64,000 nucleotides of DNA from Balanoglossus misakiensis. Taxonomy: Eukaryota > Animalia > Hemichordata. Shown piece after piece: positions 17,529-56,400 of this stretch. The position numbers and the translations under genes are program-made. Positions within the stretch are counted from its first letter, which is position 1. The number at the start of each line of letters is the position of its first letter. Location: NCBI GenBank assembly GCA_040954595.2, contig CM082588.2, forward strand, positions 9,966,844-10,030,843, read 5' to 3'. The notes beneath the pieces are model-generated. The model was given only the letters and a program-made list of their open reading frames with translations. It searched no databases and was not told the origin of the DNA.

Positions 17529-17556
17529 CAAATCTAGGCACCTACAATGGCCTTGC

Positions 17557-20259: not shown

Positions 20260-21104
20260 TTATTCAAAACCTAATCACGTAGCGATAATATTCCGCCAGG
20301 TGTTATCTCATTAATATTCATAAGAATGACAAAGGTATAAAAGAAGAACAGGGCAGAAGACTCTGTGTCATTTCCTCGCACAGTCAGGGCAGTCTCCACC
20401 GGTATAGAACATGGCTTCGAGACAAGACGTAGCTGCTCAGAAAACCACTTCCAACGTAGCTGTAGACGCTGCCTCACGAAGTTCGGCAGCCCAGCAGCCA
20501 ACTCGGGGAACGGCCACTGATTCTGATATCGCACAAGCTTTTGTGGACGCCCATCGAATTACACCTTACGCGAGTCAAGGCGTAAAGAACAACATAGATT
20601 TCCACAGCACATACCTGCTACAACAGAAAGTCTAGAAATCATGAATGTCTTTCTTCAAAGAGTGCATATCTGCACAGGTGTTCCCAAGCGCAGCCATTAT
20701 CATATCATGTTCGCCAAAACCATTACTGTTGAGACTAATCACGGTGAAACTGCGGCTGGTAACTACAAGCAGATCATCAGGGATGTTCGCTGTTCCCTCC
20801 TCCTTCCTGTGACCAGTTATGGCCGTACTTGCCGAAGATGCCAAAAAACGTACGACTACGTCAGCCAAAAAACAACCAACAAAGTGTCCCAACAGGTAAT
20901 ACTAACATATCATAGAATGCAATGCATCGAACATTATTGATTTGCATGTTACGTATAGTTCTATAGTGGATGTAGAATCCCGGAGAGACTAATATGATCA
21001 CATGGTACATTTCATAAACAGAATACTTTAATTTCTTGAAAATATGAAATACAGTGAATAAATAAAATGTATCGGCAGTGCAAAATGTAAACCAACAGTG
21101 GAGT

Positions 21105-33550: not shown

Positions 33551-33786
33551 AATGAATTATATATAAATAAGTGATTTCTAAACCATGAAAAAATGCACTC
33601 GCGCCGTTTGTCAACTTATTGTTTAACGCAAACTCATTATTTAACGCAAACTCATTATTTAAGGCCTGTTCACACAACCCCTTGCATTTGGATCATTATG
33701 TACACATATAGTCCCCACACGTGAACAAGAAATGCACATTACTTGCGGTCATTTCATTTTTATTATACTCATATATACTTATATAT

Positions 33787-36700
33787 CTGTAATGGAAATG
33801 GAGAAAGTACCTTATATTTTCTGTAAAATAGACATTTAATTGGCAAGCCGTCCTGCATCAATTATTAATTGTGTACATGCACTAAAGCGCCCTCACTGCT
33901 GGGTGTGTTGTATGGTCTTTAACCCTGTTTCAAATTAGAGTACTTTCTGCAATTTCAAGACAGATCTTACGTGCCATTGGAGAGCTCCATTGACTGGTCA
34001 TTCATACTGTTTTCATTCATTCATTGCGGCATCAATATATTTTATCTATTCTAGCCAAAGAGCTTGGCACCTGTTGAAATGAACTCATCTGCTGTGGGCC
34101 AGTTTATTGGTGGCAGTTGAGCTGAGGAGAGCACCTTCCTTCCCGGCACGCCACCAAGTAAAGTTCCACGCCGCCCCCCACAGATGCCAGCATTCATTCA
34201 TGCGAGTGAGTGTAATTGCAAATTTGCCTATTCTAGATCTGTAATGGAAATGGAGAAAGTACCTTATATTTTCTGTAAAATAGACATTTAATTGGCAAGC
34301 CGTCCTGCATCAATTATTAATTGTGTACATGCACTAAAGCGCCCTCACTGCTGGGTGTGTTGTATGGTCTTTAACCCTGTTTCAAATTAGAGTACTTTCT
34401 GCAATTTCAAGACAGATCTTACGTGCCATTGGAGAGCTCCATTGACTGGTCATTCATACTGTTTTCATTCATTCATTGCGGCATCAATATATTTTATCTA
34501 TTCTAGCCAAAGAGCTTGGCACCTGTTGAAATGAACTCATCTGCTGTGGGCCAGTTTATTGGTGGCAGTTGAGCTGAGGAGAGCACCTTCCTTCCCGGCA
34601 CGCCACCAAGTAAAGTTCCACGCCGCCCACCACAGATGCCAGCATTCATTCATGCGAGTGAGTGTAATTGCAAATTTGCCTATTCTAGAATCTTACGTGC
34701 CATTGGAGAGCTCCATTGACTGGTCATTCATACTGTTTTCATTCATTCATTGCGGCATCAATATATTTTATCTATTCTAGCCGAAGAGCTTGGCACCTGT
34801 TGAAATGAACTCATCTGCTGTGGGCCAGTTTATTGGTGGCAGTTGAGCTGAGGAGAGCACCTTTCTTCCCGGCACGCCACCAAGTAAAGTTCCACGCCGC
34901 CCACCACAGATGCCAGCATTCATTCATGCGAGTGAGTGTAATTGCAAATTTGCCTATTCTTACGTGCCATTGGAGAGCTCCATTGACTGGTCATTCATAC
35001 TGTTTTCATTCATTCATTGCGGCATCAATATATTTTATCTATTCTAGCCAAAGAGCTTGGCACCTGTTGAAATGAACTCATCTGCTGTGGGCCAGTTTAT
35101 TGGTGGCAGTTGAGCTGAGGAGAGCACCTTCCTTCCCGGCACGCCACCAAGTAAAGTTCCACGCCGCCCACCACAGATGCCAGCATTCATTCATGCGAGT
35201 GAGTGTAATTGCAAATTTGCCTATTCTAGATCTGTAATGGAAATGGAGAAAGTACCTTATATTTTCTGTAAAATAGACATTTAATTGGCAAGCCGTCCTG
35301 CATCAATTATTAATTGTGAACATGCACTAAAGCGCCCTCACTGCTGGGTGTGTTGTATGGTCTTTAACCCTGTTTCAAATTAGAGTACTTTCTGCAATTT
35401 CAAGACAGATCTTACGTGCCATTGGAGAGCTCCATTGACTGGTCATTCATACTGTTTTCATTCATTCATTGCGGCATCAATATATTTTATCTATTCTAGC
35501 CAAAGAGCTTGGCACCTGTTGAAATGAACTCATCTGCTGTGGGCCAGTTTATTGGTGGCAGTTGAGCTGAGGAGAGCACCTTCCTTCCCGGCACGCCACC
35601 AAGTAAAGTTCCACGCCGCCCACCACAGATGCCAGCATTCATTCATGCGAGTGAGTGTAATTGCAAATTTGCCTATTCTAGATCTGTAATGGAAATGGAG
35701 AAAGTACCTTATATTTTCTGTAAAATAGACATTTAATTGGCAAGCCGTCCTGCATCAATTATTAATTGTGTACATGCACTAAAGCGCCCTCACTGCTGGG
35801 TGTGTTGTATGGTCTTTAACCCTGTTTCAAATTAGAGTACTTTCTGCAATTTCAAGACAGATCTTACGTGCCATTGGAGAGCTCCATTGACTGGTCATTC
35901 ATACTGTTTTCATTCATTCATTGCGGCATCAATATATTTTATCTATTCTAGCCAAAGAGCTTGGCACCTGTTGAAATGAACTCATCTGCTGTGGGCCAGT
36001 TTATTGGTGGCAGTTGAGCTAAGGAGAGCACCTTCCTTCCCGGCACGCCACCAAGTAAAGTTCCACGCCGCCCACCACAGATGCCAGCATTCATTCATGC
36101 GAGTGAGTGTAATTGCAAATTTGCCTATTCTAGAATCTTACGTGCCATTGGAGAGCTCCATTCATACTGTTTTCATTCATTCATTGCGGCATCAATATAT
36201 TTTATCTATTCTAGCCGAAGAGCTTGGCACCTGTTGAAATGAACTCATCTGCTGTGGGCCAGTTTATTGGTGGCAGTTGAGCTGAGGAGAGCACCTTCCT
36301 TCCCGGCACGCCACCAAGTAAAGTTCCACGCCGCCCACCACAGATGCCAGCATTCATTCATGCGAGTGAGTGTAATTGCAAATTTGCCTATTCTTACGTG
36401 CCATTGGAGAGCTCCATTGACTGGTCATTCATACTGTTTTCATTCATTCATTGCGGCATCAATATATTTTATCTATTCTAGCCAAAGAGCTTGGCACCTG
36501 TTGAAATGAACTCATCTGCTGTGGGCCAGTTTATTGGTGGCAGTTGAGCTGAGGAGAGCACCTTCCTTCCCGGCACGCCACCAAGTAAAGTTCCACGCCG
36601 CCCACCACAGATGCCAGCATTCATTCATGCGAGTGAGTGTAATTGCAAATTTGCCTATTCTAGATCTGTAATGGAAATGGAGAAAGTACCTTATATTTTC

Positions 36701-39700
36701 TGTAAAATAGACATTTAATTGGCAAGCCGTCCTGCATCAATTATTAATTGTGTACATGCACTAAAGCGCCCTCACTGCTGGGTGTGTTGTATGGTCTTTA
36801 ACCCTGTTTCAAATTAGAGTACTTTCTGCAATTTCAAGACAGATCTTACGTGCCATTGGAGAGCTCCATTGACTGGTCATTCATACTGTTTTCATTCATT
36901 CATTGCGGCATCAATATATTTTATCTATTCTAGCCAAAGAGCTTGGCACCTGTTGAAATGAACTCATCTGCTGTGGGCCAGTTTATTGGTGGCAGTTGAG
37001 CTGAGGAGAGCACCTTCCTTCCCGGCACGCCACCAAGTAAAGTTCCACGCCACCCACCACAGATGCCAGCATTCATTCATGCGAGTGAGTGTAATTGCAA
37101 ATTTGCCTATTCTAGAATCTTACGTGCCATTGGAGAGCTCCATTGACTGGTCATTCATACTGTTTTCATTCATTCATTGCGGCATCAATATATTTTATCT
37201 ATTCTAGCCGAAGAGCTTGGCACCTGTTGAAATGAACTCATCTGCTGTGGGCCAGTTTATTGGTGGCAGTTGAGCTGAGGAGAGCACCTTCCTTCCCGGC
37301 ACGCCACCAAGTAAAGTTCCACGCCGCCCACCACAGATGCCAGCATTCATTCATGCGAGTGAGTGTAATTGCAAATTTGCCTATTCTTACGTGCCATTGG
37401 AGAGCTCCATTGACTGGTCATTCATACTGTTTTCATTCATTCATTGCGGCATCAATATATTTTATCTATTCTAGCCAAAGAGCTTGGCACCTGTTGAAAT
37501 GAACTCATCTGCTGTGGGCCAGTTTATTGGTGGCAGTTGAGCTGAGGAGAGCACCTTCCTTCCCGGCACGCCACCAAGTAAAGTTCCACGCCGCCCACCA
37601 CAGATGCCAGCATTCATTCATGCGAGTGAGTGTAATTGCAAATTTGCCTATTCTAGATCTGTAATGGAAATGGAGAAAGTACCTTATATTTTCTGTAAAA
37701 TAGACATTTAATTGGCAAGCCGTCCTGCATCAATTATTAATTGTGTACATGCACTAAAGCGCCCTCACTGCTGGGTGTGTTGTATGGTCTTTAACCCTGT
37801 TTCAAATTAGAGTACTTTCTGCAATTTCAAGACAGATCTTACGTGCCATTGGAGAGCTCCATTGACTGGTCATTCATACTGTTTTCATTCATTCATTGCG
37901 GCATCAATATATTTTATCTATTCTAGCCAAAGAGCTTGGCACCTGTTGAAATGAACTCATCTGCTGTGGGCCAGTTTATTGGTGGCAGTTGAGCTGAGGA
38001 GAGCACCTTCCTTCCCGGCACGCCACCAAGTAAAGTTCCACGCCGCCCACCACAGATGCCAGCATTCATTCATGCGAGTGAGTGTAATTGCAAATTTGCC
38101 TATTCTAGATCTGTAATGGAAATGGAGAAAGTACCTTATATTTTCTGTAAAATAGACATTTAATTGGCAAGCCGTCCTGCATCAATTATTAATTGTGTAC
38201 ATGCACTAAAGCGCCCTCACTGCTGGGTGTGTTGTATGGTCTTTAACCCTGTTTCAAATTAGAGTACTTTCTGCAATTTCAAGACAGATCTTACGTGCCA
38301 TTGGAGAGCTCCATTGACTGGTCATTCATACTGTTTTCATTCATTCATTGCGGCATCAATATATTTTATCTATTCTAGCCAAAGAGCTTGGCACCTGTTG
38401 AAATGAACTCATCTGCTGTGGGCCAGTTTATTGGTGGCAGTTGAGCTGAGGAGAGCACCTTCCTTCCCGGCACGCCACCAAGTAAAGTTCCACGCCGCCC
38501 ACCACAGATGCCAGCATTCATTCATGCGAGTGAGTGTAATTGCAAATTTGCCTATTCTAGATCTGTAATGGAAATGGAGAAAGTACCTTATATTTTCTGT
38601 AAAATAGACATTTAATTGGCAAGCCGTCCTGCATCAATTATTAATTGTGTACATGCACTAAAGCGCCCTCACTGCTGGGTGTGTTGTATGGTCTTTAACC
38701 CTGTTTCAAATTAGAGTACTTTCTGCAATTTCAAGACAGATCTTACGTGCCATTGGAGAGCTCCATTGACTGGTCATTCATACTGTTTTCATTCATTCAT
38801 TGCGGCATCAATATATTTTATCTATTCTAGCCAAAGAGCTTGGCACCTGTTGAAATGAACTCATCTGCTGTGGGCCAGTTTATTGGTGGCAGTTGAGCTG
38901 AGGAGAGCACCTTCCTTCCCGGCACGCCACCAAGTAAAGTTCCACGCCGCCCACCACAGATGCCAGCATTCATTCATGCGAGTGAGTGTAATTGCAAATT
39001 TGCCTATTCTAGATCTGTAATGGAAATGGAGAAAGTACCTTATATTTTCTGTAAAATAGACATTTAATTGGCAAGCCGTCCTGCATCAATTATTAATTGT
39101 GTACATGCACTAAAGCGCCCTCACTGCTGGGTGTGTTGTATGGTCTTTAACCCTGTTTCAAATTAGAGTACTTTCTGCAATTTCAAGACAGATCTTACGT
39201 GCCATTGGAGAGCTCCATTGACTGGTCATTCATACTGTTTTCATTCATTCATTGCGGCATCAATATATTTTATCTATTCTAGCCAAAGAGCTTGGCACCT
39301 GTTGAAATGAACTCATCCTTCCCGGCACGCCACCAAGTAAAGTTCCACGCCGCCCACCACAGATGCCAGCATTCATTCATGCGAGTGAGTGTAATTGCAA
39401 ATTTGCCTATTCTAGAATCTTACGTGCCATTGGAGAGCTCCATTGACTGGTCATTCATACTGTTTTCATTCATTCATTGCGGCATCAATATATTTTATCT
39501 ATTCTAGCCGAAGAGCTTGGCACCTGTTGAAATGAACTCATCTGCTGTGGGCCAGTTTATTGGTGGCAGTTGAGCTGAGGAGAGCACCTTCCTTCCCGGC
39601 ACGCCACCAAGTAAAGTTCCACGCCGCCCACCACAGATGCCAGCATTCATTCATGCGAGTGAGTGTAATTGCAAATTTGCCTATTCTTACGTGCCATTGG

Positions 39701-41069
39701 AGAGCTCCATTGACTGGTCATTCATACTGTTTTCATTCATTCATTGCGGCATCAATATATTTTATCTATTCTAGCCAAAGAGCTTGGCACCTGTTGAAAT
39801 GAACTCATCTGCTGTGGGCCAGTTTATTGGTGGCAGTTGAGCTGAGGAGAGCACCTTCCTTCCCGGCACGCCACCAAGTAAAGTTCCACGCCGCCCACCA
39901 CAGATGCCAGCATTCATTCATGCGAGTGAGTGTAATTGCAAATTTGCCTATTCTAGATCTGTAATGGAAATGGAGAAAGTACCTTATATTTTCTGTAAAA
40001 TAGACATTTAATTGGCAAGCCGTCCTGCATCAATTATTAATTGTGTACATGCACTAAAGCGCCCTCACTGCTGGGTGTGTTGTATGGTCTTTAACCCTGT
40101 TTCAAATTAGAGTACTTTCTGCAATTTCAAGACAGATCTTACGTGCCATTGGAGAGCTCCATTGACTGGTCATTCATACTGTTTTCATTCATTCATTGCG
40201 GCATCAATATATTTTATCTATTCTAGCCAAAGAGCTTGGCACCTGTTGAAATGAACTCATCTGCTGTGGGCCAGTTTATTGGTGGCAGTTGAGCTGAGGA
40301 GAGCACCTTCCTTCCCGGCACGCCACCAAGTAAAGTTCCACGCCGCCCACCACAGATGCCAGCATTCATTCATGCGAGTGAGTGTAATTGCAAATTTGCC
40401 TATTCTAGATCTGTAATGGAAATGGAGAAAGTACCTTATATTTTCTGTAAAATAGACATTTAATTGGCAAGCCGTCCTGCATCAATTATTAATTGTGTAC
40501 ATGCACTAAAGCGCCCTCACTGCTGGGTGTGTTGTATGGTCTTTAACCCTGTTTCAAATTAGAGTACTTTCTGCAATTTCAAGACAGATCTTACGTGCCA
40601 TTGGAGAGCTCCATTGACTGGTCATTCATACTGTTTTCATTCATTCATTGCGGCATCAATATATTTTATCTATTCTAGCCAAAGAGCTTGGCACCTGTTG
40701 AAATGAACTCATCTGCTGTGGGCCAGTTTATTGGTGGCAGTTGAGCTGAGGAGAGCACCTTCCTTCCCGGCACGCCACCAAGTAAAGTTCCACGCCGCCC
40801 ACCACAGATGCCAGCATTCATTCATGCGAGTGAGTGTAATTGCAAATTTGCCTATTCTAGAATTCTTACGTGCCATTGGAGAGCTCCATTGCCTGGTCAA
40901 TCATACTGTTTTCATTCATTCATTGTGGCATCAATATATTTTATCTATTCTAGCCGAAGAGCTTGGCACCTGTTGAAATGAACTCATCTGCTGTGGGCCA
41001 GTTTATTGGTGGCAGTTGAGCAGAGGAGAGCACCTTCTTTCCCGGCACGCCACCAAGTAAAGTTCCACG
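33787..41069 (+). repeat. Left terminal array of unit A (177 bp, 11 copies) and unit B (~270 bp, ~20 copies), higher-order pattern
   Basis: Order ABABBB ABABBB ABBB ABABABABBB ABAB+partial B. The AB period is 452 bp and the copies are almost identical. Confidence 0.95.
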
Positions 41070-42859
41070 TGCATTCCTGGCCCTGGTTTTATTTATGTTT
41101 ACAGACAATATTGCATTTTTGTACAAGTATTTTAATCAACTATAAATTTTGAATGTGTCATTTACCTGAACCGGTCATGTTGACCAGAATGATACATTTC
41201 TGCCTTCACTCACCCTATAAATATGTGATTGAGACATAGGTCATTTGCATAAGCTAACATACCAGAAAGTAAGCATATCTGTTGTTTTCCCTGTGTCACT
41301 GCCATCAAAGTAAAAATTAGACGTTGTGTAGAGCAAACTCCAATTTTTTGTTCTCAATAAACATGGATGAATTACATAGAATGTGTTTGTTGTTTACAGT
41401 CTTTAAATGACACATTAGATTATGCACTTTACAAAACGTTTATGAGAAACAAGTGACTAACTAGTTTCTTTCCACTGTGGCCAACGTGGTTCACTGTTTG
41501 TGTCAGAATCTCTCTGTTTTGCAAGGATTTTGAAATCATAGTGGTGACATGCATAGTGAAAATCAGCTACTTTCAAATGTCCGTCATGTTCATGCTGTAA
41601 TTGAATTTTCAAAGCTGGGCTGGCGTGTTTTTTCTTATTTACATAAGTATCACACTTTATACATGTATCTTCATGGGGTTTTTTGAGTCCCGTATTTAGG
41701 TCCTCTCTCACAATTTTACGAAATATCGTATAACTGACAGTTGTTCTTCCCAGAAGAGATTGGTTGGTTATGAACTCTCGGTGTAACTGCGATATACTGT
41801 GGTCCGGCGCCAGGTACGGTTTAAATCGAGGATTCCTGCAGTAGTGAGATTCTACAATTATGTGCCTGCGTACGTGTTCAGTGATATCAGTCAGCAAATT
41901 TGGATTGAGTTTCCGACGATGCCCTTTGTGTCGGCCCCTTGCATCTGGCATCAGACCAGTAAAGTTCCATGTGCATTCCTGGCCCTGGTTTTATTTATGT
42001 TTACAGACAATATTGCATTTTTGTACAAGTATTTTAATCAACTATAAATTTTGAATGTGTCATTTACCTGAACCGGTCATGTTGACCAGAATGATACATT
42101 TCTGCCTTCACTCACCCTATAAATATGTGATTGAGACATAGGTCATTTGCATAAGCTAACATACCAGAAAGTAAGCATATCTGATGTTTTCCCTGTGTCA
42201 CTGCCATCAAAGTAAAAATTAGACGTTGTGTAGAGCAAACTCCAATTTTTTGTTCTCAATAAACATGGATGAATTACATAGAATGTGTTTGTTGTTTACA
42301 GTCTTTAAATGACACATTAGATTATGCACTTTACAAAACGTTTCTGAGAAACAAGTGACTAACTAGTTTCTTTCCACTGTGGCCAACGTGGTTCACTGTT
42401 TGTGTCAGAATCTCTCTGTTTTGCAAGGATTTTGAAATCATAGTGGTGACATGCATAGTGAAAATCAGCTACTTTCAAATGTCCGTCATGTTCATGCTGT
42501 AATTGAATTTTCAAAGCTGGGCTGGCGTGTTTTTTCTTATTTACATAAGTATCACACTTTATACATGTATCTTCATGGGGTTTTCTGAGTCCCGTATTTA
42601 GGTCCTCTCTCACAATTTTACGAAATATCGTATAACTGACAGTTGTTCTTCCCAGAAGAGATTGGTTGGTTATGAACTCTCGGTGTAACTGCGATATACT
42701 GTGGTCCGGCGCCAGGTACGGTTTAAATCGAGGATTCCTGCAGTAGTGAGATTCTACAATTCTGTGCCTGCGTACGTGTTCAGTGATATCAGTCAGCAAA
42801 TTTGGATTGAGTTTCCGACGATGCCCTTTGTGTCGGCCCCTTGCATCTGGCATCAGACC
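41056..42859. repeat. 902-bp tandem duplication containing the 3' half of the N-terminal transposase ORF
   Basis: 41056-41957 matches 41958-42859, with AGT microhomology at the junction. It produces the truncated ORF 41457-41951. Confidence 0.95.
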
Positions 42860-43315
42860 AGTTGAACAGTGCATCATTTTGCTTAGAACGGTTCTAGTCC
42901 GCCTCTCACTAATGCCAAATAATTTCAGGAATGCATTTTTGCAGACAGTAACCGTTTCACCGCCTTCATTCACCAGGTGATAACGAACCGATTTCTTGTG
43001 TGACTTCATCTGTATATCCATCAGTTTGTAGAGCATCAAGTTCTGTTCATTATACACGCGACCATCAAAATATTTTCTCGTGGTGCCTAAAACATGCGTA
43101 CTCCCAAGCTTCCGCAGACAATTCCCTTGAACGCAGGCGCATTCCAAGGAAAGACTGTCAATATCTGGAAAAGGGCGATTTTTCCTTGGTTTTTGTCTCG
43201 GACACGTCTTTTTAGAATTCCTACGTGGCTTGTTGGCTCGAGCTGACAGTTCGGTTCTGCGTTGCTGCCACACAGGAATGGGTTCCCACGCATAAGCAAC
43301 TCCCCGGCAGGCCAT
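42359..43315 (-). CDS. Sola-type transposase, N-terminal (Zn/DNA-binding) half, 318 aa
   Basis: Uninterrupted ORF from an accATGg start. Motifs CACVQGNC, EQNLML, YHL..VCKNAFLKLFGISERR, DARGRH, HVRR..ESHYCR..YL..SISQLHREF, VSYTIF..KPHEDTCIKCD..H..A, which I recognise from Sola1-type transposases. Confidence 0.8.
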   Translation of the reverse strand: MACRGVAYAWEPIPVWQQRRTELSARANKPRRNSKKTCPRQKPRKNRPFPDIDSLSLECACVQGNCLRKLGSTHVLGTTRKYFDGRVYNEQNLMLYKLMDIQMKSHKKSVRYHLVNEGGETVTVCKNAFLKLFGISERRTRTVLSKMMHCSTGLMPDARGRHKGHRRKLNPNLLTDITEHVRRHRIVESHYCRNPRFKPYLAPDHSISQLHREFITNQSLLGRTTVSYTIFRKIVREDLNTGLRKPHEDTCIKCDTYVNKKKHASPALKIQLQHEHDGHLKVADFHYACHHYDFKILAKQRDSDTNSEPRWPQWKETS

Positions 43316-43478
43316 GGTCACAGCTGAAGTATTTGTTCAAGTACTGACTGACTAAACGCGGCATGGAACAAACGAACGAACGACTTCACGTTCGGAAAAA
43401 AAATCGTTGCGAGCTGTTGGGTGCCTCTATAGTTGTCGGCAACCGTTCTTTTTTATTGCTAAACAATGCTGTCAGAGC

Positions 43479-44492
43479 ATGGAAGGTGTGGTGGAAAACG
43501 AACAGAGGTTTTGTACGACCAACGATTGGATGGTGCTACATATGGACTTCCACAAGTCATTGCCGGTTCCTAAACTCAGCTCTGAAGACTTTTACTTTAA
43601 ATCGAAATTGCAAATGAAGCTCCTTGGAATTTACAACGGGACAACGGAAAAGATGCATTGTTATGTATGGACAGAGCTCGATAGCAGAAAGTCTCCCGAT
43701 GAAGTTATTACCTGTCTAAATCACTTTTTTTATAACTCGGGTGTGACCAGCAGACATGCAGTTATTTACAGCGACAACTGCCGTGCCGAATTCAAGTGTG
43801 GGAAGTTAATGTTTTACTATGACTATCTGTTACGAAAGGGCGTGTTTCGACGAATTGACTATAAAACTCTTGTGGCTGGACACACGTACTCCACCTGTGA
43901 CCGAGTTTTTGCGTCCATTGAAAGGCATGCAAGTCGTTTCCAGAGTATAGAGACACCTCACGATTGGACATCTGTGATTCGAGGATCTTCTCTGAATGGG
44001 AACATTGGAGTTACGGAGATGACTCACAGAGACTTTTTCAATTATTCTGATTTCCTGAAAAATGAGTACGTTGTGCGTTATGCAGATACAAACAATGTAA
44101 CTTTTTACTACCAAGCCATGCACTATTTTAATTTTGGAGAAGGAGAAAGGCTTGATACCGACGGCAACCTCAGAACATTTAGTCATGCAGATAAAGTTTG
44201 GGTGAGAACATCTCTAGATCCAAGCGAGACCCCGATTGTAGTCGACTTTAGAAAGAAGAAGCAGAACCGGCGTTTACAAGATTGTACGCTGAACAAACTT
44301 TATCAGGAACGTCGACCACTGGCGAGCAAAGTTTGGCGGGATCTTCAGAGTTTAGCCAAAAATTACCTGTCTCCGGAGGCAATAGAATTTTATAGGAATC
44401 TACCGCTTCAGGAGAGTAGTGGCACCTCTGCAGACCCGTACGCCTTTCATGATGATGACGACGACGATGATGATGATATGGGCGGTGGTTGA
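43479..44492 (+). CDS. Sola-type transposase, C-terminal catalytic DDD half, 337 aa
   Basis: Uninterrupted ORF from agcATGg. Motifs HMDFHKSLPVP..FYFKSKL..CYVWTE..EVITCL, IYSDNC and LVAGHTYSTCDRVFASIE give three candidate catalytic Asp. Acidic tail. Confidence 0.85.
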   Translation: MEGVVENEQRFCTTNDWMVLHMDFHKSLPVPKLSSEDFYFKSKLQMKLLGIYNGTTEKMHCYVWTELDSRKSPDEVITCLNHFFYNSGVTSRHAVIYSDNCRAEFKCGKLMFYYDYLLRKGVFRRIDYKTLVAGHTYSTCDRVFASIERHASRFQSIETPHDWTSVIRGSSLNGNIGVTEMTHRDFFNYSDFLKNEYVVRYADTNNVTFYYQAMHYFNFGEGERLDTDGNLRTFSHADKVWVRTSLDPSETPIVVDFRKKKQNRRLQDCTLNKLYQERRPLASKVWRDLQSLAKNYLSPEAIEFYRNLPLQESSGTSADPYAFHDDDDDDDDDMGGG

Positions 44493-44882
44493 ACAAACTG
44501 TCCTTTTCATGACGACAGTGATTTTGGATATTTGATGTGCGTGCACAGTTTATATGTAATATTTTCACACGAACGAGTTTTGACTGAATTTGATTAAAGA
44601 ATGTACTCGATAATTAACAAATGTGCTGAATCGTGGTTATTATGTTGTTAATTTTTGTTTGTTTGTTTGTTTGTTTGTTTGTTTGTAAACAATTTCCGTT
44701 CATTCAACTGGCTACAAAGTTGGATTTTTGTACTGGGAAGCGATAAACTCGCACATCAAAACCGGGGAGACTCGATCATTTTTCCCTGCAGGTAGCCTGA
44801 AAAGCACCCGGGCAGAGATTACGTCATATATGGTCCACTTTAATACGAAATTATGCAAATGTGACATTTCACGGAAACGGCG

Positions 44883-44892
44883 TATATAAAAG
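44883..44892 (+). promoter_or_regulatory. TATA box upstream of the SET gene
   Basis: tatataaaag about 100 bp upstream of the ATG at 44984. Confidence 0.45.
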
Positions 44893-44983
44893 CGACCCTG
44901 GGCTATTGTTCGGAATGCGTCATCGACGAGAGAGTGACTGATAATTCTTCTACCTCGAGTCAACCATTCTGTATATACTGAAC

Positions 44984-46310
44984 ATGGCTAGCTGGCGCAG
45001 GAAGAGACAAGGCAATGTGCGGTCTGTAATCAACGAACGGCACCGCTCAGTTCAGTGTCCCTTTCTTCAAAAGTGGATCGGTGAGCAATTGGTATTTTCA
45101 GGTCGTTCAGAGGATGAAGTCCAGTCCAGTACTGTATTTGAGAGCTACAAATGTTGGGTTGAAAACTATTCGTCGGCGGACAATCAAGTAATGATTATGG
45201 TTACTAAAGCTCGATTTTTCAAGGTGAGAATGATCGCATTTTTCTTCCCCCCCCCCCTCCCTCCCCCAAGGGACTCGTTTTCTGTCTCTTTTAAACCTGT
45301 AACTTAACGAAAAGGAAGTTTTTCACATATCTCTTTGTTGACACTATAGCAATTTGGAGCGCGGATGCTTCAAGAGAATAGCGTTACCAAATCAAAGTCG
45401 GCCGGGGTTAATATTTATAGAGGTGTTCGTCTGAAAGCTGGTTCGCGAAGAATCTCAACGGGGAAACCTGAGCACAGTGTACTTCAGACCAGGGCAAGGG
45501 CATTTCTTGATGACGCCAGCGTGACCGTTCCGATCGAGGTAAGAATGGTGTTTTGTTTGGACTAGGACAATAGAACGTTGCAATGAGTGTGTCAATGGGT
45601 GTCCAAGTGCAAACGTGGTCGGCTTCTGTCCACAAATGCCATTAATTTTAGGCAGGATTTATAAAATTGTCAATGAAGAATACAAAAATGAAAAACAATA
45701 GTTAATAGCAAACGGGTAGGATTGCAAGGGCTTGTAAAACGGTACACACTGTACCAGGAAGTTTGCAACACTAATGAAGAATGTATATGATATATTTAGG
45801 TGAGAACTGTTCGCGATCGCCGGGACGCAGGACGGTGCGCGTTTTCGACGAGGGATCTTCAAGCCTGGAACGTCGTCTGCGAATACCGGGGCACGGTTAT
45901 TAGCGTTGAAGAAGCTAGTCGGCGTGATGAACTTTACAGGGCAGAGGGGAAACGACCACGCATGTTTCATCTCTACATTGGAAAGAGACACGTTGTGTGA
46001 GTGTATCACTTAGTCGAATATATGGTCATATATTGCAAAGCATCTGTCGAAATAGAAAACGTAATATTGTCTATATTTTCCTCATTAACGCAGCATTGAC
46101 GGATACGATGTCCCAGCCGGTGAAGAAAATTTAGCGGGCCTAATAAATCACAGTCAGCAGAACGCCAACTTGGTACCGGTTCGGATCGGAGAGCGCCTGG
46201 TTTTCTTTGCAACCAGGAATCTTTGTCAGGGAGTAGAGCTTTTGTATGATTACGGTGACGGGGGTGAAGAGGATTTCTTCAGTGGTTCTCAAACTTTTCC
46301 TGAAAATTAA
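44984..46310 (+). CDS. Winged-helix-like N-terminus + SET-domain lysine methyltransferase (SETD8/PR-Set7-like), 4 exons, 280 aa
   Basis: GT-AG exons 44984-45223, 45350-45538, 45800-45996 and 46094-46310 join in frame (843 nt). SET motifs: GRCAFSTRD..VCEYRGTVIS..EA..R, IDG, GLINHS..NL, FFATRNL..GVELLYDYG. The N-terminal FLQKWI..VFESYKCW..FFKQF..YRGVRLK resembles an RFX/D5-type winged helix (inference). Confidence 0.82.
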
Positions 46311-47214
46311 GGCATTAACACATCAACGCTTCGGGATGTCGTAACGGCGGCAAGGCGGGGGGGGGGGGGGCGTGAAAATGTTTGTATCAGGAACAAAATT
46401 CCCCTGCAAATCACCTTGATCCGGGTGGGTGGACTATTCGCGACAAATGTTGAAATCATACAAAGCATTTTACTTAATTAACCCATTTTTTTTTCATTTA
46501 TTTGTTTACAGTTTACAACGTCATAGAGAAGTTGAACTAGAGACTGGATCAGCGTGGGTGACACCATAGTACACCAATGTTTTCTTCCGTTTGAATCAAT
46601 TGTAATTTAAAACTGAGATTGCCTAACGCTTTCCCAGATTTTTTTAACCACTGAGAAACTGTGGGTTTTTTTCTGGGTTTTGGTGCGAGGTGATCTCAGT
46701 CAGTGGTGTTAATTTAATTAATCATTTTATTTTCCTATTTACGTCGACTGAAATATATTTTGATAGGTGATAGTCATACCATAAAAAAATCTTACGGCGC
46801 GACTGCCAAAATGTACATTTATTTGTCCGTTCCAAGTTATTTTGTGTATGTGTGATGGGTGCCGGTGACTGTGCAGGGTTGATTTCCCTAGAGCGACTGT
46901 TATATTCGTTTTCCAACGATGATGAATTTACATGTTATTTGCTTGGCATTTTGACGCAGAGACACTTCTGAAAACACAAACCTATTAATTATGCCACGGG
47001 TGTAAATTGATCACATTAAAAGAGGCTTTAGACGTTTGCCGCGAGCTCCTGGTGGGCAGAATCTTGTCAGCCCAAATTTGACTATAAGTACATAGCCAAT
47101 GATATGACGCTCTCCCACATCCTTCGCCGCGCCTTTTCGCTGATTTACAGCATCTTGCGTAAACACTGTCATTTGATCTTGCTTGGCAGAAGTCAACTTG
47201 CTCTATACTACATT

Positions 47215-47580
47215 ATGGCGGCCAAGCTCAACTGCATATCAGATAATGCCAAGGAGCGTTTGAGAGGCATCCTCGCCAGAAGGAGTCGCGTTTCCGGTGA
47301 CTGTGTGCTCTGGACGGGTGCAGCTTGTCGAAACGGCTATGGCTCTATTACGTTCAAAGATGAGAACACTCTAACCGCCTATGTCCATCACATTGCACTC
47401 CTAATTAACGGAGTGCAATTGGTGGGCAGGCGGTTAGAGTGTTCTCATCTTTGCAACGAAAAGCTATGCATCCGCCCAGAGCACATTGTCCAGGAAACGC
47501 GACTCCTAAACATTTCACGAAAGACGTGCTTTAAATCCCCAAAAGGGGAGTGTCACCACGATCCCAGGTGCCTAAGGTGA
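47215..47580 (+). CDS. His-Me finger (I-PpoI-like Zn-binding loop) endonuclease, 121 aa
   Basis: CVLWTGA..NGYG.I...YVHHIA..ECSHLCNEKLCIRPEHIVQE...NISRKTC...C.HDPRC, i.e. the SHLC..C..P.H..E..N..R..C..C.H.P.C His-Cys-box pattern. Confidence 0.88.
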   Translation: MAAKLNCISDNAKERLRGILARRSRVSGDCVLWTGAACRNGYGSITFKDENTLTAYVHHIALLINGVQLVGRRLECSHLCNEKLCIRPEHIVQETRLLNISRKTCFKSPKGECHHDPRCLR

Positions 47581-48554
47581 GTAATCCTCTTCTCATTTGA
47601 TATGTATTGTGTGACCCTGCAGTTGAAACGCTTTCATCAATAATTTGCGGCGCGTGGGTAATCTCGGTGTTATTGACAATGCAGCCGGCCCAAACATTTT
47701 TAAATTAACACTGTTTCTGACTGTATTAACGAAATGTCCAATTTGCAAGTAGCCTATAGACAACCCTTTTGAATGAGTTTTGTCTCGTTGAGATTTTATA
47801 CATAAGGAACAATCTAGATTTATTTTAGAAGACACTGTTCTTTTAAAACAGCTAGCATAATACAGCTAAATTTCGGAATTTCCGGACAATTTTCGGAATT
47901 CCTTTTAAATTTGAGAAATTTTTCATCAGATATAAGTGTTACTATTTATTGGGCATGTTTTTATCATTGTTTACTTTTTAAGGTCATTCTCATCCCCCCC
48001 CCCCCAAAAAAAAAGCCGCTTTAGGCTTCATGTTCAGTAAAAAATCTGGAAAGTTCAGCTGAATTTTACACTGATCACACATTTTTGGGAAGGTCTGGCG
48101 CAAAATAAAGGATGACAAATGTAAATCTAATGTCACATTTGTAAACCTCTAAGTATTGTACACTCATTCTATTAAGTATATGCAAATAGTACGGATAATT
48201 TTTTCGGAATGTGGAATTCCGAAATTAGTTCGGAACGTGTTAGCAGTGAAGAGATCACCACTGAGGGTTGGAAGGCCTTGCCAGAAATTAACGCGTAAAG
48301 TACGCCCTCACAGGCCATGTAAACAAGGTCAAATAAGGCCGTCTGGCAAACGAATGATTAATTCAACGCGCCATTTGAGCCGAGCTGAGTTGGTCTGAGT
48401 TACGTATCACACAGACTTAGGCTGAATGTCAGTGGAGTAACCAGTCCGTTTTAGATTTACCAATGATGTGAATTTAATTTCTTCACCCAGAAAAACAGAA
48501 CACAACTTGTCTGCAACATGATGCTGGAGGTGACACATGACAGAGAAGTGGATC

Positions 48555-48890
48555 CGCGTTGTCAACACAGATGCCAGCATTCAAAAGGGGAGTGCCACCT
48601 GCTAAAATCAACTCATCTGCTGTTGGCCCATTTTACCTGTGGCAACTGTTCAGAGGAGACAACGTTTATTCCGTGCAAGCCAACACGCAATGTTGGGGTC
48701 TACCTGTCAACACAGATGCAAGCATTCATGTGAGTGAGTATCAGGACTGACCTTGTATTTGCTGAATAATTCATAATGCCTATTTTAGAATTCTTAGAGG
48801 CATTTGGAGTTCATTGCCTGGTCAACCAAACTACACCCCTTAACAGCTGAAACAAAATGCGTATTGTGTTCATTCATTCATTGCATCAAT
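48555..48890 (+). repeat. Degenerate relic of array unit B
   Basis: cacagatgccagcattca, cacctgctaaaatcaactcatctgctgt, gcctattttagaattctta and cattcattcattgcatcaatatat are recognisable but diverged and rearranged. Confidence 0.7.
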
Positions 48891-49209
48891 ATATATAGGC
48901 AACATGAGTATCAAGTAGCACTATTTGTTTACGATTGTATTCATGAAAACTTCCCACTAACAATTCCACAGTTAATATTGAACACATTTATCCAACAAGG
49001 TCAAAAGAAAAAGGGAATCTTCTGGTTCCAAAATACGCCACAAATGTGGGTCAACATACAGTGAAATATTATGGTGCTCAAATATGCAACATATCAAATC
49101 TGTCTCATCAAAGTCATGCTTTAAAAAAGAATTGAAAAGGTATTATTTATCCATTTGACTGCTGTATTTTCAGAAGGAAAACAAACTGAATTTGGTTTTT
49201 CATGTACAA

Positions 49210-50085
49210 ATATTTTCTGTAAAATAGACATTTAATTGGCAAGCCGTCCTGCATCAATTATTAATTGTGTACATGCACTAAAGCGCCCTCACTGCTGGGT
49301 GTGTTGTATGGTCTTTAACCCTGTTTCAAATTAGAGTACTTTCTGCAATTTCAAGACAGATCTTACGTGCCATTGGAGAGCTCCATTGACTGGTCATTCA
49401 TACTGTTTTCATTCATTCATTGCGGCATCAATATATTTTATCTATTCTAGCCAAAGAGCTTGGCACCTGTTGAAATGAACTCATCTGCTGTGGGCCAGTT
49501 TATTGGTGGCAGTTGAGCTGAGGAGAGCACCTTCCTTCCCGGCACGCCACCAAGTAAAGTTCCACGCCGCCCACCACAGATGCCAGCATTCATTCATGCG
49601 AGTGAGTGTAATTGCAAATTTGCCTATTCTAGATTCTTACGTGCCATTGGAGAGCTCCATTGACTGGTCATTCATACTGTTTTCATTCATTCATTGCGGC
49701 ATCAATATATTTTATCTATTCTAGCCAAAGAGCTTGGCACCTGTTGAAATGAACTCATCTGCTGTGGGCCAGTTTATTGGTGGCAGTTGAGCTGAGGAGA
49801 GCACCTTCCTTCCCGGCACGCCACCAAGTAAAGTTCCACGCCGCCCACCACAGATGCCAGCATTCATTCATGCGAGTGAGTGTAATTGCAAATTTGCCTA
49901 TTCTAGATCTGTAATGGAAATGGAGAAAGTACCTTATATTTTCTGTAAAATAGACATTTAATTGGCAAGCCGTCCTGCATCAATTATTAATTGTGTACAT
50001 GCACTAAAGCGCCCTCACTGCTGGGTGTGTTGTATGGTCTTTAACCCTGTTTCAAATTAGAGTACTTTCTGCAATTTCAAGACAG
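49210..50085 (+). repeat. Right terminal array: partial A, B, B, complete A
   Basis: Same units and orientation as the left array. It ends exactly at the ACAG of unit A. Confidence 0.95.
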
Positions 50086-50479
50086 ATATACTTATATACT
50101 TATATACTTATATATTAGATGAAACACCGAAAAAGGTATCAACTAGTTAGTGATTTTAGCCCGTGATTGCAATGTTTGATTGAAACGCGAAAAGCTGATC
50201 GATAGCTCTACATTGTGGTCTCCGAGGTCAAAGGTTGGCCGGTCATGGCGATACCATTATTAAAATAGGGGCCAGTCATCAAAACGTAAGTGAGCCAAAA
50301 AACTACAGGTCAGATAAATTGTTTTCTCGTAAATTCAACATTAGAATCAAATTTGGCGTTGGAAACAAACGGCGGGTCGCCAGTTCCTGGTCTGGAGGCT
50401 GGTAGAGTCACGTCTTGAAGACTGGCCCCTATTTTAATAATGGCATTCCAGCATATGTCTCTATACCCGAATCGACAAT

Positions 50480-53400
50480 TAACATTACAGGACAGCTGAC
50501 GGATATAAAATTTATACTTTATAGAGAGGAACAAATTCAGACTTAAACATACTTTATATGTTTGTATTTTACAGCTGGGATACTTTTCTGTGCGTAAAGA
50601 TAAACACTGGTCGCAATAAATGACGTCGAGTGGTTTCAGTTGAATTCCATTTGTGCGAGGCAGGTGTGGACAGCATGCAAAGCGGCGTTGTTATTGGCGC
50701 GGTTCCTTTAAAGTGTTTTACTCTGTCATTCAGCGAGTTTTCTGACCGCGTATGAAGTTCGGTGTCCAGTGGCGTTGACGGCGTGTCATTCAGAAATCTA
50801 TGTTCAGTGTATTCAGTTCAAGACTGAAGTCAGCAAATGTTACAATTATTAGTTTGTTTGTGGAAGTTGGAAATGATGCAACAAGGATTCTTGAATGTAT
50901 TCGAGATTTTAAAAAGAAGATGTAGTGCTCTAAAGGGCCATTGTGACGACAATATTTTGCCCAACAGCTGTATAAACTGTTGCTCACGATAATTCCTGAC
51001 TTTATCGCGGTCTGGTTGAAAAATGTTTGTATGTTACTTGATTGTGGTGGAGTGTTTTTCTGCCGACTAAACAAACATTCTGTGCCATATATTAAGTGTG
51101 TTGAGTGGTTTCCGCCAAAGTCTATACGCATAAAGTCAATAGATTAAACAGTATTTAATCGTTAAGAGATGCCCCCCCCCCCCGTTACGCTTATACATTT
51201 CAACACATATATGCACAAACGAATGGACAATTTGCATTACAAAACAGCTGGTAAAATTCATACTTGCATTTTATAGAGAAGAAAAAACTTAAAAGACTTA
51301 AACTTATATGCTGATAGTTTACAGCAGGGGTATTTTGTGTGTGTAAAGGTAAACACTAATAGCAATAAATGACGTCGAGTGGTTTCGGTTGAATTCCATT
51401 TGTGCAAGGCAGTGGTGGACAGCAATAAACCATGCAAAGTAGCGCTGTTATCAATGCGGTTTCCATAAAGTTGTCTGCTCCGTCATTCAGCGAGTATTCT
51501 GACTGTGTATGCAGGTCGACATCCAGTGGCTTTGACGGCGTGGCATTCGGCGGTAAGTGTAATAAGACTAAAGTTAGCTAATTTGCCAATTATTACTTTG
51601 TATGTAGGAATTAATGTTTTGAAATGATGCCACGAGTCTTCTTGAATTTAATTGACATTATAAAATGCTGATGTTGGCTGGCAAAAGTAAATTCTCAGTT
51701 AATATCCTGAACATCTAAAAGAGTATTGCAATGAATGATCATTGTAATTTGTGGACATTATTTGCTTTATTTTTGTTTTAAAAGAACAAGTTCACATTGC
51801 ATTGCGACACTTTGTATTTAGTTTGCAAAGTGGTTAGACGTACGTAGTTTTGGAAGCAAAGCGGACAAAATACGGCTACATACAAGACACTTGACTATTC
51901 TGACACGCGATTCTGTTGACAGTACAGTGTGTCCTCGATGCAATCTACTGTGTACTCACACTCATGAATCTACTTAACGTGTCAGGATTTACTGTTTTAC
52001 TTGTTCGAGCACAGTCATCACTGCTCGACTGAGCTTGTCAAGAAAGCCGAAACGGAGTAGCACAAAACCCCAAATCAATCATGCAACATTCACGTAAGAC
52101 AGCGATCTGCAGTCGAAATAGAATAGTACTGGACAAGTAACGGTTTAATTTATATGTGGACACATTTGTGAGACGTACATTCTGATTGGCTTCGTTTCGT
52201 CAACTCTGTAACTGGCCGATGAATGATTGATTAATTCTAAATATGAGAAATAAAACATTGTCTCTTCTGGCAACGCAGAAACTGTACAAGGGGATGGGGA
52301 ATAGTTTACGTCAATGTGTTGAATGCAAAACAGCTGTATGAATTCTAGCTCATGAAAATCCTGACTTTATCGCGATCTGGTTGAGAGGTGTTTTTCTATC
52401 CTGCTTGATTGTGAGTTTGAATGGCGGAGTATTTCTCTACCAACTAAAACATTCTGTGCTATAAAATGTGTTGAGTGGTTTCGGTATGCCATAAAGCCAA
52501 AACAATAAACAGTATACATGTATTTAATCTTTAAGACCCGAAGTAAATTTCTTCTGATTACAAGCTGAATAGATTGTTTGTATGACAATTAATTTCGAAA
52601 CGGATTCCACGGATCGGAATATCCACAAAAACAATTCTTGATGTACATATAATGCCAAACATCATAGCTGAAAGGTCACTTTACTCCTTTACCTCGTACC
52701 ACTGAGAGAGCGCTGATAACAGCAATCAAATCAATATTGGCTGACAATTTTATGAATACTGGTCTTGGTTTTAATAAATCCTAGTCGAAAAGGATTAATG
52801 CGAATGAACGGTGCTGATAAAGATGACAGAATTAACACTGGTACACATGCAATCTCACTGACTCCAAATAAAATCAGATGAAGGTGTTGATGAAGGCCAT
52901 TCTCTATGACAATAATAACTGCAAGCAATTGCTTATCTACATTACACGTGTTAGGGCGTTGAATCCGATTGACTCGTTAGCGACAAGAGGGAGGACAACA
53001 GTAGTACAGGGATGGAAATCAAAAATTGGATTTACCCGTCTAAAACTGTTAGTCAATGTGGGTCTTATGATTTATGGATATTATATGTAAACTTGAATTA
53101 AGCAATAACCCCCGCCGCAGGCGGGTATACACGAGATTTGGGTACAATTCGAGACATATAGCACGAGCCGTCAGGCGAGTGCTATATGGAGCGAATTGTA
53201 CCCAAATCGAGTGTATACCCGACTGAGGCGGGGGTTATTGCTATTACATTATATCAACAACTGTTTTTGTGGCATATCAGTGTCATTTTCTTACCGAAAC
53301 GGTGTCAGAAAGAGAAATTACGATCGTGAACCAACATGGCGACGACGAATGTAAACACGAGCGGCCGGGATCGAGCATTAAACATGAAGCAGACGACAAA

Positions 53401-56400
53401 AAGTGACAAGACGGGCATCGCGCGTGGCAAAGCGACAAATATATCCACAGAGCAGTTCCAAAATAAAACGTCCGTTAATTCAACATTATTTTTGTTTTAT
53501 TTATTTGGTTTAAACACGCGCGACTGTGGTTTAGCCCACATTTTGCTGCCGTATGCTAGTTCAGGGGCCCGTTTTACCACTGCTAGCCATGGTAAAACAG
53601 TATTTTACCATTGCTGGATTCAGCTCTCGTCCAATCAGAATCGCGGATGGTAGCATGATATAATATAATTAGCCTTCTTCAAGTTGGCGTTTATCCGTTA
53701 TACGACTTAGTTCATGTTTAAGTTATTTTTTTTTTCAATACACGCGCGGTTATCCAACGTGTGACAAAAAAAACTGAGAAGTCCCGGTCTCTCATGACGA
53801 CATTTTATTTACAATTTTTCTGGTTACACGTATTTAACCTTTTCGCTGATTTGTTGTAAACTAACTTTTTATGAGCAGCAGGTCCTAGCTTGAGATTAAC
53901 ACATGTTGAAATACATGCCTGTGTTACTTTGTAGTCATTCTGATAATGCGTCTATAAACATGGCAGACCGGAGTCATGCAATATAAATGAATGATGACCT
54001 CTGACCCGACATGAGTTCCTTCAAGGTGACGCAGGTATGGCGCCAGCCTTTCACAATATATGTGACAGCTGGGCTGACATAGCTATATAATGTGCTGTAG
54101 ACACAATTTCGTCTGACTGGGCCTGCAATTTAGGCCTGTCCTGGCCCAATTTTCTAAAAAATAATACCCCTTGAAATACAATATTCTACTCAATATGTCA
54201 TGATTGACTGTATACTTGTTCGAGCGGTGTCCTTTTGACAGTCAGACCTGAGCGACTCTACTGAAGTCTCCGGATAATAAGCGGACACGAGCAAAAGGAT
54301 TTACACACGGTCACTCCTCGACTGTTATTTACACCATCGCCGAAACGGAGCAGCGAATCACCAAACACTCACGCAGGACAGCGATCTGTAGTAGAAAAAA
54401 ATAATACCAATCGGCAAGGCAAAGTAACTGTTAAAATTTGCATTTCGATACATTTATGAGACGCACGTTCTGATTGGTTCTATTTCGCCAGCGCTCGAAT
54501 AGTCTAGAAGTTGTGATGTAACTAGCGCCCCCTTGTAGTCAATCACATAAACCGAACACTGGTGATTGGGCGTTACATTATAGTAAAGGTGGGGCTAATT
54601 AAAAATTTAACCCATCCTTAATTACACTCATGTATATCATTTGTCCAATCCTAACAGTGTGGAATTGACTTCAGAGGGTCGCTAGTTACATCACAATTCC
54701 CAGGTTTTATTGGGCCAGTGGCATGTAGTAGCATGCATGACTCTAGACATAATTTTGAAAGCAAAGCGGACAAAATACGGCTAGATACTAAACTAGTATA
54801 ATTAAAAACATGCGAAATAAACCACGGCCTCTTTTGGCAACTCAGAAACTGTTGCTCTAAAGGGGCCATGGTTGCGACAATATTTTGCCAACCTGCTATA
54901 TAAAATGTAGCTCACGATAATTCCTGACTTTATCGCGAACTGGTTGAAAAATGTTTGTAGCTACTTGATTGTGGTGGGGTGTTTTTCTGCCGACTAAACA
55001 AACACTCTGTGCTATATATTAAGTGTGTTGAGTGGTTTCCGTCAAAGACTATACGCGTAAAGCCAATAGAACAAACAGTATTTAATCTTTAAGACCCAAA
55101 GTAAATTGCTTCTGATACGTACCTGTACATACCAAGCTGAACAGACAGCATGTCAATAAACTTCAAAGTAAACTATCGGATTATCCAAAAAAAAAATACC
55201 TAGATCAACAATACCTAAAGAATAGTCACAGAAACCTCATGAATGGAAGGCCAAACTTATGTTCTTGTGTGGGCAGGGATGTCATTTACACTTCTTTACT
55301 TAGTACATGAGTGAGTGTGAATGCACTGATATGAACAACACTACAATCGATGTTGGTAATTAGGAACAATAGTCAAAGTTTACGTTTTAATTCTAAAAGT
55401 ATGAATGCAGTTGAGCAGTGCTGATAACATTTACACACTAGACACTGATACACATGGAGTCTCACTGACTCCAACATGTAATCAGATGCAGGTGAAGGCC
55501 ATTCTCTGTTGATAAGAGCAATAAAATTGATCGACACTTTTATGCCAACTGGCCAATGTTTGCCTAAAAAATTTGCTAACGTGGGTCTTATACTGTTGTT
55601 CTTGTTAACTTTGCAAGCAGTTGACTAATAAAACATTAATCTTCGTTGCACATAGGAGGGCGTTGAATCCGATTGACTTGGTAGCGACAAGAGGGAGGAC
55701 AACAGTAGTACAGGATTAGAAATCCAAACTTAGGCTGAACCGTCTAAACTTTTATCAACGTGGGTCTTATACTGTTGTTCTTATCAGTGCGTTTGTTGTG
55801 GGTGACGTGTCAATTGCCCTTCTTTAAACATGTCTCAGCTCACAAATTATAGATTGATGTTGATTTTTTTAGTTTATTAGTTTTTTAGTTTATAACTTTA
55901 GTCTCCATGTTTTTTCTGTTATCGCATGCATGCCCCTTTACGATAATGTGCATTTACACACGGCCCAATATTTTTGGATTTTGATTTGCCCTCTTTGAGG
56001 AAAAAAGAGTATTCGTGGACATGACATCGTTTATTCCTGTTTAAATAAATATAAACATTTTGACCGACCCTAGACTTTAAAAACATGCGAAATAAACCAC
56101 AGCCTCGTTTGGCAACTCAGAAACTGTTGCTCTGAAGGGGCCATGGTTGCGACAATATTTTGCCAAACAGCTGTATGACCTGAGGCTCACCTGAGATTAT
56201 CGCGATCTTGCTGAAAACAATGTTTGTAGCTATTTGATTGTGGTGGAGTGTTTTACTGCCGACTAAACAAACACCCTGTGCTATATATTAAGTGTGTTGA
56301 GTGGTTTCCGTCAAAGTCTATACGCGTAAAGCCAATAGAACAAACAGTATTTATTCTTTAAGACACAAAGCTCAACAGACAGCATGTCAATAAACTTCAA

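Follow-up and report, generated by a model that had tools for sequence, protein, structure and literature searches.

The Sola superfamily of DNA transposons, with its Sola1 group, is said to have been set out by Bao et al. in 2009. Sola1 elements show AWWT/AWDT target-site duplications (TSDs) and a single open reading frame (ORF) of 630 aa (PMC3845634), and those of bivalves have a mean size of 5.4 kb (PMC10294476). KolobokP, a lineage within the Kolobok DNA transposons (Kojima & Bao 2022, PMC9587614), carries terminal direct repeats of ~450 or ~660 bp with 5'-RR...YY-3' termini, and its Kolobok DDE transposase has a C/DxxH motif and a zinc finger in the stretch from the second D to the E; in the same paper, junctions between two interiors (INT-INT) are argued to be repeat excisions, and a role of its I-PpoI-like nuclease in repeat recombination is proposed, though untested (PMC9587614). 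SET methyltransferases are carried by HarbingerS and by oomycete MuDR families (PMC12730594), and a passage of a 2026 review mentions KolobokP alone as a transposon with a protein-guided homing-type nuclease (PMC13565253). Here, a stretch of 64,000 nucleotides from the hemichordate Balanoglossus misakiensis (GCA_040954595.2, contig CM082588.2, positions 9,966,844 to 10,030,843 of the forward strand; hereafter, the window) was analysed. Its positions 33787-50085 are read, with a probability of about 0.62, as a composite cut-and-paste DNA transposon, in which a transposase encoded by two genes would act on the ends of a repeat named A, either moving the whole unit or excising single A copies, the repeat arrays being formed via unequal crossover.

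The unit opens with repeat A (177 bp, CTGT...ACAG, 33787-33963) and is closed by an identical copy (49909-50085). The two ends of A match each other in inverted orientation at 19/24 positions, a value reached by 0/100,000 shuffles, i.e., terminal inverted repeats (TIRs) are present. Directly outside both terminal copies stands ATAT (33783-33786 and 50086-50089), which is compatible with the AWWT pattern, but is embedded in a (ATATACTT)n microsatellite that is missing from the contig carrying the empty site (see below), and just one insertion is at hand; since the empty form lacks the (ATATACTT)n filler on both sides, ATAT is a candidate rather than a proven 4-bp TSD. The internal A copies lie in the context AGAT-A-ATCT, giving just a 2-bp AT repeat. 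The sequence-only reading of this DNA had proposed these boundaries, the ATAT pair and, between them, four open genes, namely those of a split transposase, a SET methyltransferase and a His-Me nuclease, all bounded by a TIR-bearing direct repeat; each of these points held up, with ATAT placed inside the microsatellite. The features of the unit and of its borders are the following.

33771-33786, no strand: left filler, AT-rich, with the candidate TSD, ATAT, as its last four bases (33783-33786); absent from the empty-site contig
33787-33963, +: repeat A, left terminal copy, 177 bp, with imperfect TIRs (19/24; repeat comparison)
33787-41069, +: left array of 11 A and 20 B, with 9 B-B junctions missing an A; the last B ends at its base 207
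33964-34238, +: unit B, 275 bp, putative spacer separating A copies
41056-41960, -: 3' part and 3' region of the N-half gene, duplicated in tandem without the gene start (period 902 bp, 5 differences); ~2x the interior depth in run X1
42359-43315, -: transposase N-half gene, 318 aa, Cys/His-rich, the presumed DNA-binding part (homolog alignment, tree)
43316-43478, no strand: 163 bp separating the two start codons, a likely bidirectional promoter, with two out-of-frame upstream ATGs on the + strand
43479-44492, +: transposase catalytic-half (C-half) gene, 337 aa, RNase H fold, D23-D99-D141
44984-46310, +: winged-helix-SET gene, 280 aa, four GT-AG exons predicted at 44984-45223, 45350-45538, 45800-45996 and 46094-46310 (Pfam, structure match, ortholog in locus L001)
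47215-47580, +: gene for a 121-aa, I-PpoI-like nuclease of the His-Cys box (His-Me finger) type (Pfam, structure match)
47281-47507, +: long imperfect palindrome within the coding part of the nuclease gene; of the 99 pairs predicted, 93 are Watson-Crick
48579-48894, +: old, diverged B-like sequence (~70% identical) with a B-B-type junction
49210-50085, +: right array, with a truncated A (bases 28-177) followed by two B and by the complete terminal A (49909-50085); its junction at 49210 is a likely deletion breakpoint
50086-50114, no strand: right (ATATACTT)n filler beginning with ATAT; absent from the empty-site contig

Altogether, the window contains 12 full copies of A, a truncated one (bases 28-177) and 22 units of B (275 bp), arranged as ABABBBABABBBABBBABABABABBBABABB, followed by an 8.1-kb interior and then by aBBA (where a is A without its first 27 bases). 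Since 11 of the 12 full A copies are identical and the remaining one differs at a single base, the array is young or homogenised. The A+B period (452 bp) does not have inverted ends, and A-B-A measures 629 bp; B is likely the interior of a non-autonomous A-B-A mini-element. Besides the four open genes, the interior comprises the 902-bp duplication of the N-half gene's 3' part and the 70%-identical old B; it begins after B base 207, and the array resumes at A base 28, neither junction being a clean A end. As single-stranded DNA, repeat A folds no better than its shuffles (z -1.4), and no Rfam match was found within 40000-50500.

The C-half matches DUF7869 (PF25273, E 1.4e-14), which is its only Pfam match, with neither DDE_Tnp_4 nor Plant_tran being hit. 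On their motifs, the DUF7869 homologs are putatively assigned here to Sola1. The fold model of the C-half (mean predicted local distance difference test, pLDDT, of 84.8 from a 14-sequence alignment; an earlier fold from 3 sequences, with pLDDT 38, was set aside) superposes on integrase and Mos1 cores with Z 9-10 and a root-mean-square deviation of 2.6-3.3 over 126-145 residues. As modelled, the C-half is an integrase/mariner-type RNase H core with an intact DDD triad; D23, D99 and D141 are invariant in 8/8 sequences, and the 41 residues between D99 and D141 leave no C/DxxH insertion region.

A full-library search with the C-half retrieved 3,054 relatives, and the homolog counts given here refer to the best 150 of these. 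Fused homologs are single proteins of 600-750 aa. As judged from the alignments, the N-half and the C-half are two halves of one ancestral protein, split at the boundary between DNA-binding and catalytic parts, because, in 50 of the 51 homologs of at least 550 aa among the matches listed, the N-half aligns with the N-terminal part and stops where the catalytic match starts. The nearest relatives are stand-alone catalytic proteins of ~270-320 aa beginning shortly before the first aspartate, as in Saccoglossus kowalevskii (XP_002739486, 47%). In a 41-row tree, 13 stand-alone C proteins form one clade (support 100/98), whose two sister rows (P0018 and P0009) are likewise without an N-half, P0018 being classed as fused by its length, yet lacking any N-half match, and P0009 having 376 aa; in a 31-row tree, the five split N proteins also form one clade (100/99), in which the window row is a long branch. 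On these phylogenies, the split of the transposase defines an old clade. In the first tree of 75 rows (10 fused and 22 unclear rows omitted), 14 short proteins fall outside the split clade, and are presumably fragments. The divergence of both halves is high at synonymous sites (pS 0.77-0.90, i.e., saturated) and much lower at nonsynonymous ones (pN 0.16-0.35). Word-based protein searches with the N-half and with the nuclease, made among near-length proteins only, returned nothing.

A programmed re-fusion of the two halves by inversion was considered and is unsupported, since no shared repeat joins the 3' end of the N-half to the 5' end of the C-half in the window, L001, L002 or L010. Two out-of-frame ATGs (43363 and 43466) precede the catalytic gene start, and the frame opened at 43363 extends to 43617, overlapping the gene; it could dampen the translation of the catalytic half.

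A scan of metagenome contigs with a sub-alignment yielded 33 loci from 185 candidates, and the genomic context is described for the 17 closest and for six more distant ones, L024-L033 being weak short matches outside this comparison. Both halves were found in 11 of the 17 close loci, on opposite strands each time (same strand, 0/17), either head-to-head (L002, L003, L005-L008, L013, L014) or tail-to-tail (L001, L010, L012); the other 6/17 are without an N-half. Loci L002-L008 are ~99% identical, so that about five independent loci are represented. In the more distant group, an N-half match occurs in 2/6, on the same strand and just upstream. The order and the orientation of the genes vary among the relatives, several of which are broken by insertions or frameshifts. 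No match was obtained with alignment A1 in viral and metagenome contigs, with P0006 and alignment A4 in viral contigs, or with A4 in prokaryote genomes.

Some further features of these contigs can be mentioned. An inverted repeat pair of 28-33 bp surrounds the catalytic-half gene in L013 (963-995/2442-2474) and L016 (63-90/1500-1527), with the left arm ending in the start codon; the left arm is also found in L014, L015 and L017. The pair possibly marks an invertible segment or the ends of a mini-element. Within the window, positions 45641-45661 (- strand, SET intron 2) match 20 bases of this repeat with one substitution and one insertion (0/200 shuffles, post hoc), in the orientation that the downstream arm has to the catalytic gene, and run X1 shows one base difference inside the match. 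L005 contains, at 65-4888, a long terminal repeat (LTR) retrotransposon with 145-bp LTRs inserted beside the N-half gene, and these LTRs are not the ends of the split-transposase element.

Exon 4 of the SET gene matches PF00856 (E 1.6e-07), with SETD8/KMT5A among its best solved relatives (E 0.0008, a weak and partial match); exon 1 gives a lead to the Pox_D5 winged-helix family, which it resembles with a score of 0.97 (the family being found on 27% of the members). The protein is predicted to be a SETD8-like histone methyltransferase. The SET gene of L001 matches exons 1, 3 and 4 of the window gene, its exon 2 is visible in translation and the exon boundaries are shared; by this comparison it is the ortholog of the window gene, and it adjoins the split genes there as well. 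Exon 4 is retained in L002-L008, and no SET gene was found in L009-L017. As far as can be judged from these comparisons, the split transposase and the SET cargo are very probably conserved traits of the lineage.

The stop-to-stop frame of the nuclease gene matches PF05551 (E 9.6e-13), and its product aligns with I-PpoI, its best solved relative, across the His-Cys region (E 0.0016, again a weak and partial match). Its coding sequence contains a 227-nt palindrome whose folding stands out against dinucleotide shuffles (z -14.9) and against synonymous-codon shuffles (-191.5 vs -107 +/- 5.5 kcal/mol; 0/300 as low); the frame and the motifs are intact on both arms, and an X1 contig covers 47361-47616 with zero differences. 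We infer that the hairpin acts as a brake on a DNA-cutting gene, via double-stranded RNA or blocked translation; alternatively, the palindrome might have been left by fold-back repair and have no function.

The read evidence comes from runs X1 and X2, X3 and X4 (short pieces only) having been left out. Of the sampled words, a fraction of 0.85 is present in X1. At flank positions with a single covering contig, X1 deviates from the window, and it probably represents another individual or haplotype. The unit is an insertion into a site that also exists empty, since one X1 contig links the left flank (33770) to the right flank (50115) via 10 other letters, and three X2 contigs show a similar, more diverged join between the flanks. 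In this respect the sequence-only reading, which had looked to empty sites and to further copies for support, was answered on the first count. In X1, contig depth (which is not a copy number) is ~700-800 in the gene region, about three times that of the flank, ~120-250 in the long flank contigs, 1,565 in the duplicated segment and 50,000 or more in A/B, which suggests few gene-bearing copies together with hundreds of A/B units. At 49210, the main X1 contig continues into sequence that the window does not contain; it is therefore likely that the window copy was deleted at this point and lost part of its right interior.

Three other observations were made on these reads. The ATATACTT-type filler (33771-33786 and 50086-50114) stands where the empty-site contig has its 10 bases, and might be the scar of an earlier break that was repaired. 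X1 joints leading back from 48894 to 48596 or 48582 suggest that tandem arrays of a second, diverged B type (window 48582-48894) exist elsewhere. Joints in X2 between A or B ends and 44217, 44343, 45531, 45818 and 47175 fall on GATC sites or next to them, their two sides being separated by GATC; they were discarded as insertions, being probably proximity-ligation chimeras.

The junctions between two adjacent B units (n = 10) are of four kinds, and every one is without A and without at least one flank base: TTCTAGA-A-TCTTACG (four cases), a join at a shared TCT (four), TTCTAGA-T-TCTTACG (one) and TTCTAGA-AT-TCTTACG (one, also present in the old B). Since the groups of four come back together with an ABBB block that is itself repeated, they represent about four events, and a plain rejoining of both flanks was found in 0/10. 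The three kinds without microhomology fall among the four predicted by flank-hairpin excision, of which the fourth (restored site) is absent; two of the three are also expected from the loss of one base. Known flank-hairpin enzymes carry an insertion domain, and the C-half fold is without such a domain. The best reading of these junctions, as far as their analysis goes, is that single A units were excised. The missing-repeat junctions were seen for the mini-unit B and not for the gene-bearing interior.

On the reading preferred here, the two halves are predicted to reassemble into one enzyme acting on the inverted ends of A, with the N-half binding these ends and recruiting the catalytic half. 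Mobilisation of the whole unit would use the outermost A ends, whereas a single A would be excised through its own two ends, leaving the B-B footprints; A-B-A would be a non-autonomous mini-element that multiplied in place by unequal crossover up to the 7.3-kb array. The weakest steps are the roles of the accessory enzymes: the His-Cys nuclease might stimulate this recombination with cuts inside or close to the repeats, as proposed for KolobokP, its hairpin transcript keeping expression low, and the winged-helix domain might guide the SETD8-like enzyme to the chromatin of the element itself, countering silencing. A bolder version, which we offer tentatively and would not back at even odds, would see here an undescribed animal DDD lineage with a two-gene heterodimer transposase and its own chromatin writer, this member having convergently reached a KolobokP design, with an excisable end module of 177 bp and a homing nuclease silenced by its hairpin growing its ends into satellite arrays.

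Several observations weigh against the composite transposon. The sequence-only reading had looked to other copies linking the genes to the repeats, and this was not borne out among the relatives: the nuclease (best E 0.24) and A/B occur in 0/33 loci, many of whose contigs are short, decayed or interrupted by other elements, and comparable terminal repeats are absent from the six loci with the longest flanks (tandem scans in two of them; contigs short or decayed). The SET gene is present in just 2 of about 5 independent relative loci, and the ~99% identical L002-L008 look like one locus seen repeatedly rather than a dispersed family. A second complete copy, ending in A on either side and carrying a TSD of its own, was found neither in the window nor in the sequencing runs, and no A terminus is found among the loose ends listed (6 of 143 rows in one listing and 24 of 308 in another), dispersed solo A copies thus not being evident. 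The empty-site contig, lacking all of the (ATATACTT)n filler, may be a paralog. Finally, the X1 joint between A base 36 and 48295 (depth 382), which looks like a gene-less deletion derivative tying A to the interior, has just 25 letters on its short side.

A part of these data would be accommodated if the block of split transposase, SET and nuclease were a transposon with other ends of its own, which inserted itself into, or was taken up by, an A-B satellite derived from an unrelated miniature element moved by another transposase. A/B are indeed absent from the 33 relative loci and long terminal repeats from the six loci examined for them, the X1 interior extends beyond 49210, the X1 depth of A/B is 50,000 or more vs ~750 for the genes, and the interior is not bordered by a clean A end on either side. 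However, an insertion should interrupt and then resume one and the same unit, whereas here the array stops at B base 207 and restarts at A base 28; the 70%-identical B, with its B-B junction inside the interior, implies a long association; an X1 contig joins the 5' end of A to the interior; and genes and arrays are missing together from the empty site. This explanation is regarded as unlikely, even though it is the most serious of the competitors.

The genes might instead be an immobile cluster retained by the host from a transposon, i.e., a domesticated DNA-binding protein, transposase core and methyltransferase, next to a locally expanded satellite. The strong purifying selection, the introns of the SET gene, the low depth of the gene block and the one apparently fixed locus behind L002-L008 are what such a cluster would show, but the empty site exists, gene order and orientation differ among relatives with several broken copies, and one catalytic-half cluster has 20 members, many on separate long contigs, all of which make domestication improbable. 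That the unit is a KolobokP element with extra cargo is very improbable indeed: the TIR-bearing direct repeats, the multimers, the missing-repeat junctions, the I-PpoI-like nuclease and an A+B period of 452 bp, near the ~450-bp repeat class of KolobokP, would all suit it, but the ends are CT...AG and not RR...YY, A is 177 bp long, the nuclease lies on the strand of the catalytic gene, and the idea is refuted on the transposase, which has 41 residues between the second and third acidic residues and no C/DxxH insertion region.

Other mobile sequences were noticed in the rest of the window. Frameshifted ORFs at 26849-28361 presumably derive from a P-element/THAP-type transposase, judging by eye; two near-copies ~2.8 kb apart at 17518-22598, with ORFs ending in a PHD-like Cys-His finger, are likely a duplicated transposon-borne gene; positions 7975-9282 (- strand) resemble, by eye, the 3' portion of an ORF of a non-LTR retrotransposon; and the right flank (50468-63220) is filled by a dispersed or tandem repeat family of 71-90% identity.

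A naturally split and conserved transposase shows where a DDD enzyme separates into DNA-binding and catalytic subunits, and the C-half might provide a small soluble core for a first structure or biochemistry of the family. A second, unrelated transposase associated with self-inverted direct repeats and a His-Cys nuclease would independently support the KolobokP model, for whose testing the element supplies one nuclease and two short candidate substrates (A and B). The conserved winged-helix-SET cargo is a candidate anti-silencing factor, and the array may allow the passage from transposon ends to satellite DNA to be traced.

Literature searches, which covered sources other than Repbase Reports and subscription journals, yielded no account of the element; Repbase may hold an entry. 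Compared with the known systems, the unit is probably a Sola1 derivative, with a transposase that is not the single protein of that group. It shares with Sola1 the DDD triad, the RNase H fold, short TIRs and A..T four-base flanks, and differs from it in having the transposase in two opposite-strand genes, composite repeats, two accessory enzymes and a size of 16 kb or more vs the 5.4-kb mean of bivalve Sola1. Like HarbingerS and the oomycete MuDR families, it would be a DNA transposon with a SET histone methyltransferase gene; unlike them, it belongs to another transposase superfamily, and its SET domain, joined to a D5-like winged helix, accompanies a split transposase. As to single proteins, I-PpoI is the nearest solved structure of the nuclease and SETD8/KMT5A is among the nearest of SET exon 4, with weak and partial matches. 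From KolobokP it differs in three defining features, i.e., repeat length (177 bp vs ~450 or ~660), outer termini (CT...AG vs RR...YY) and transposase, which is of an unrelated type with a compact DD41D core encoded by two genes; it also has a SET gene, a self-complementary nuclease gene on the same strand as the catalytic gene, and arrays of a 275-bp mini-interior. It nevertheless shares with KolobokP the terminal direct repeats with their own short inverted ends, the multimers sharing a repeat, the junctions that join interior to interior, with a small deletion, at places lacking a repeat, and a small His-Cys nuclease resembling I-PpoI, in agreement with the earlier proposal of a KolobokP-like repeat architecture built on a non-Kolobok transposase.

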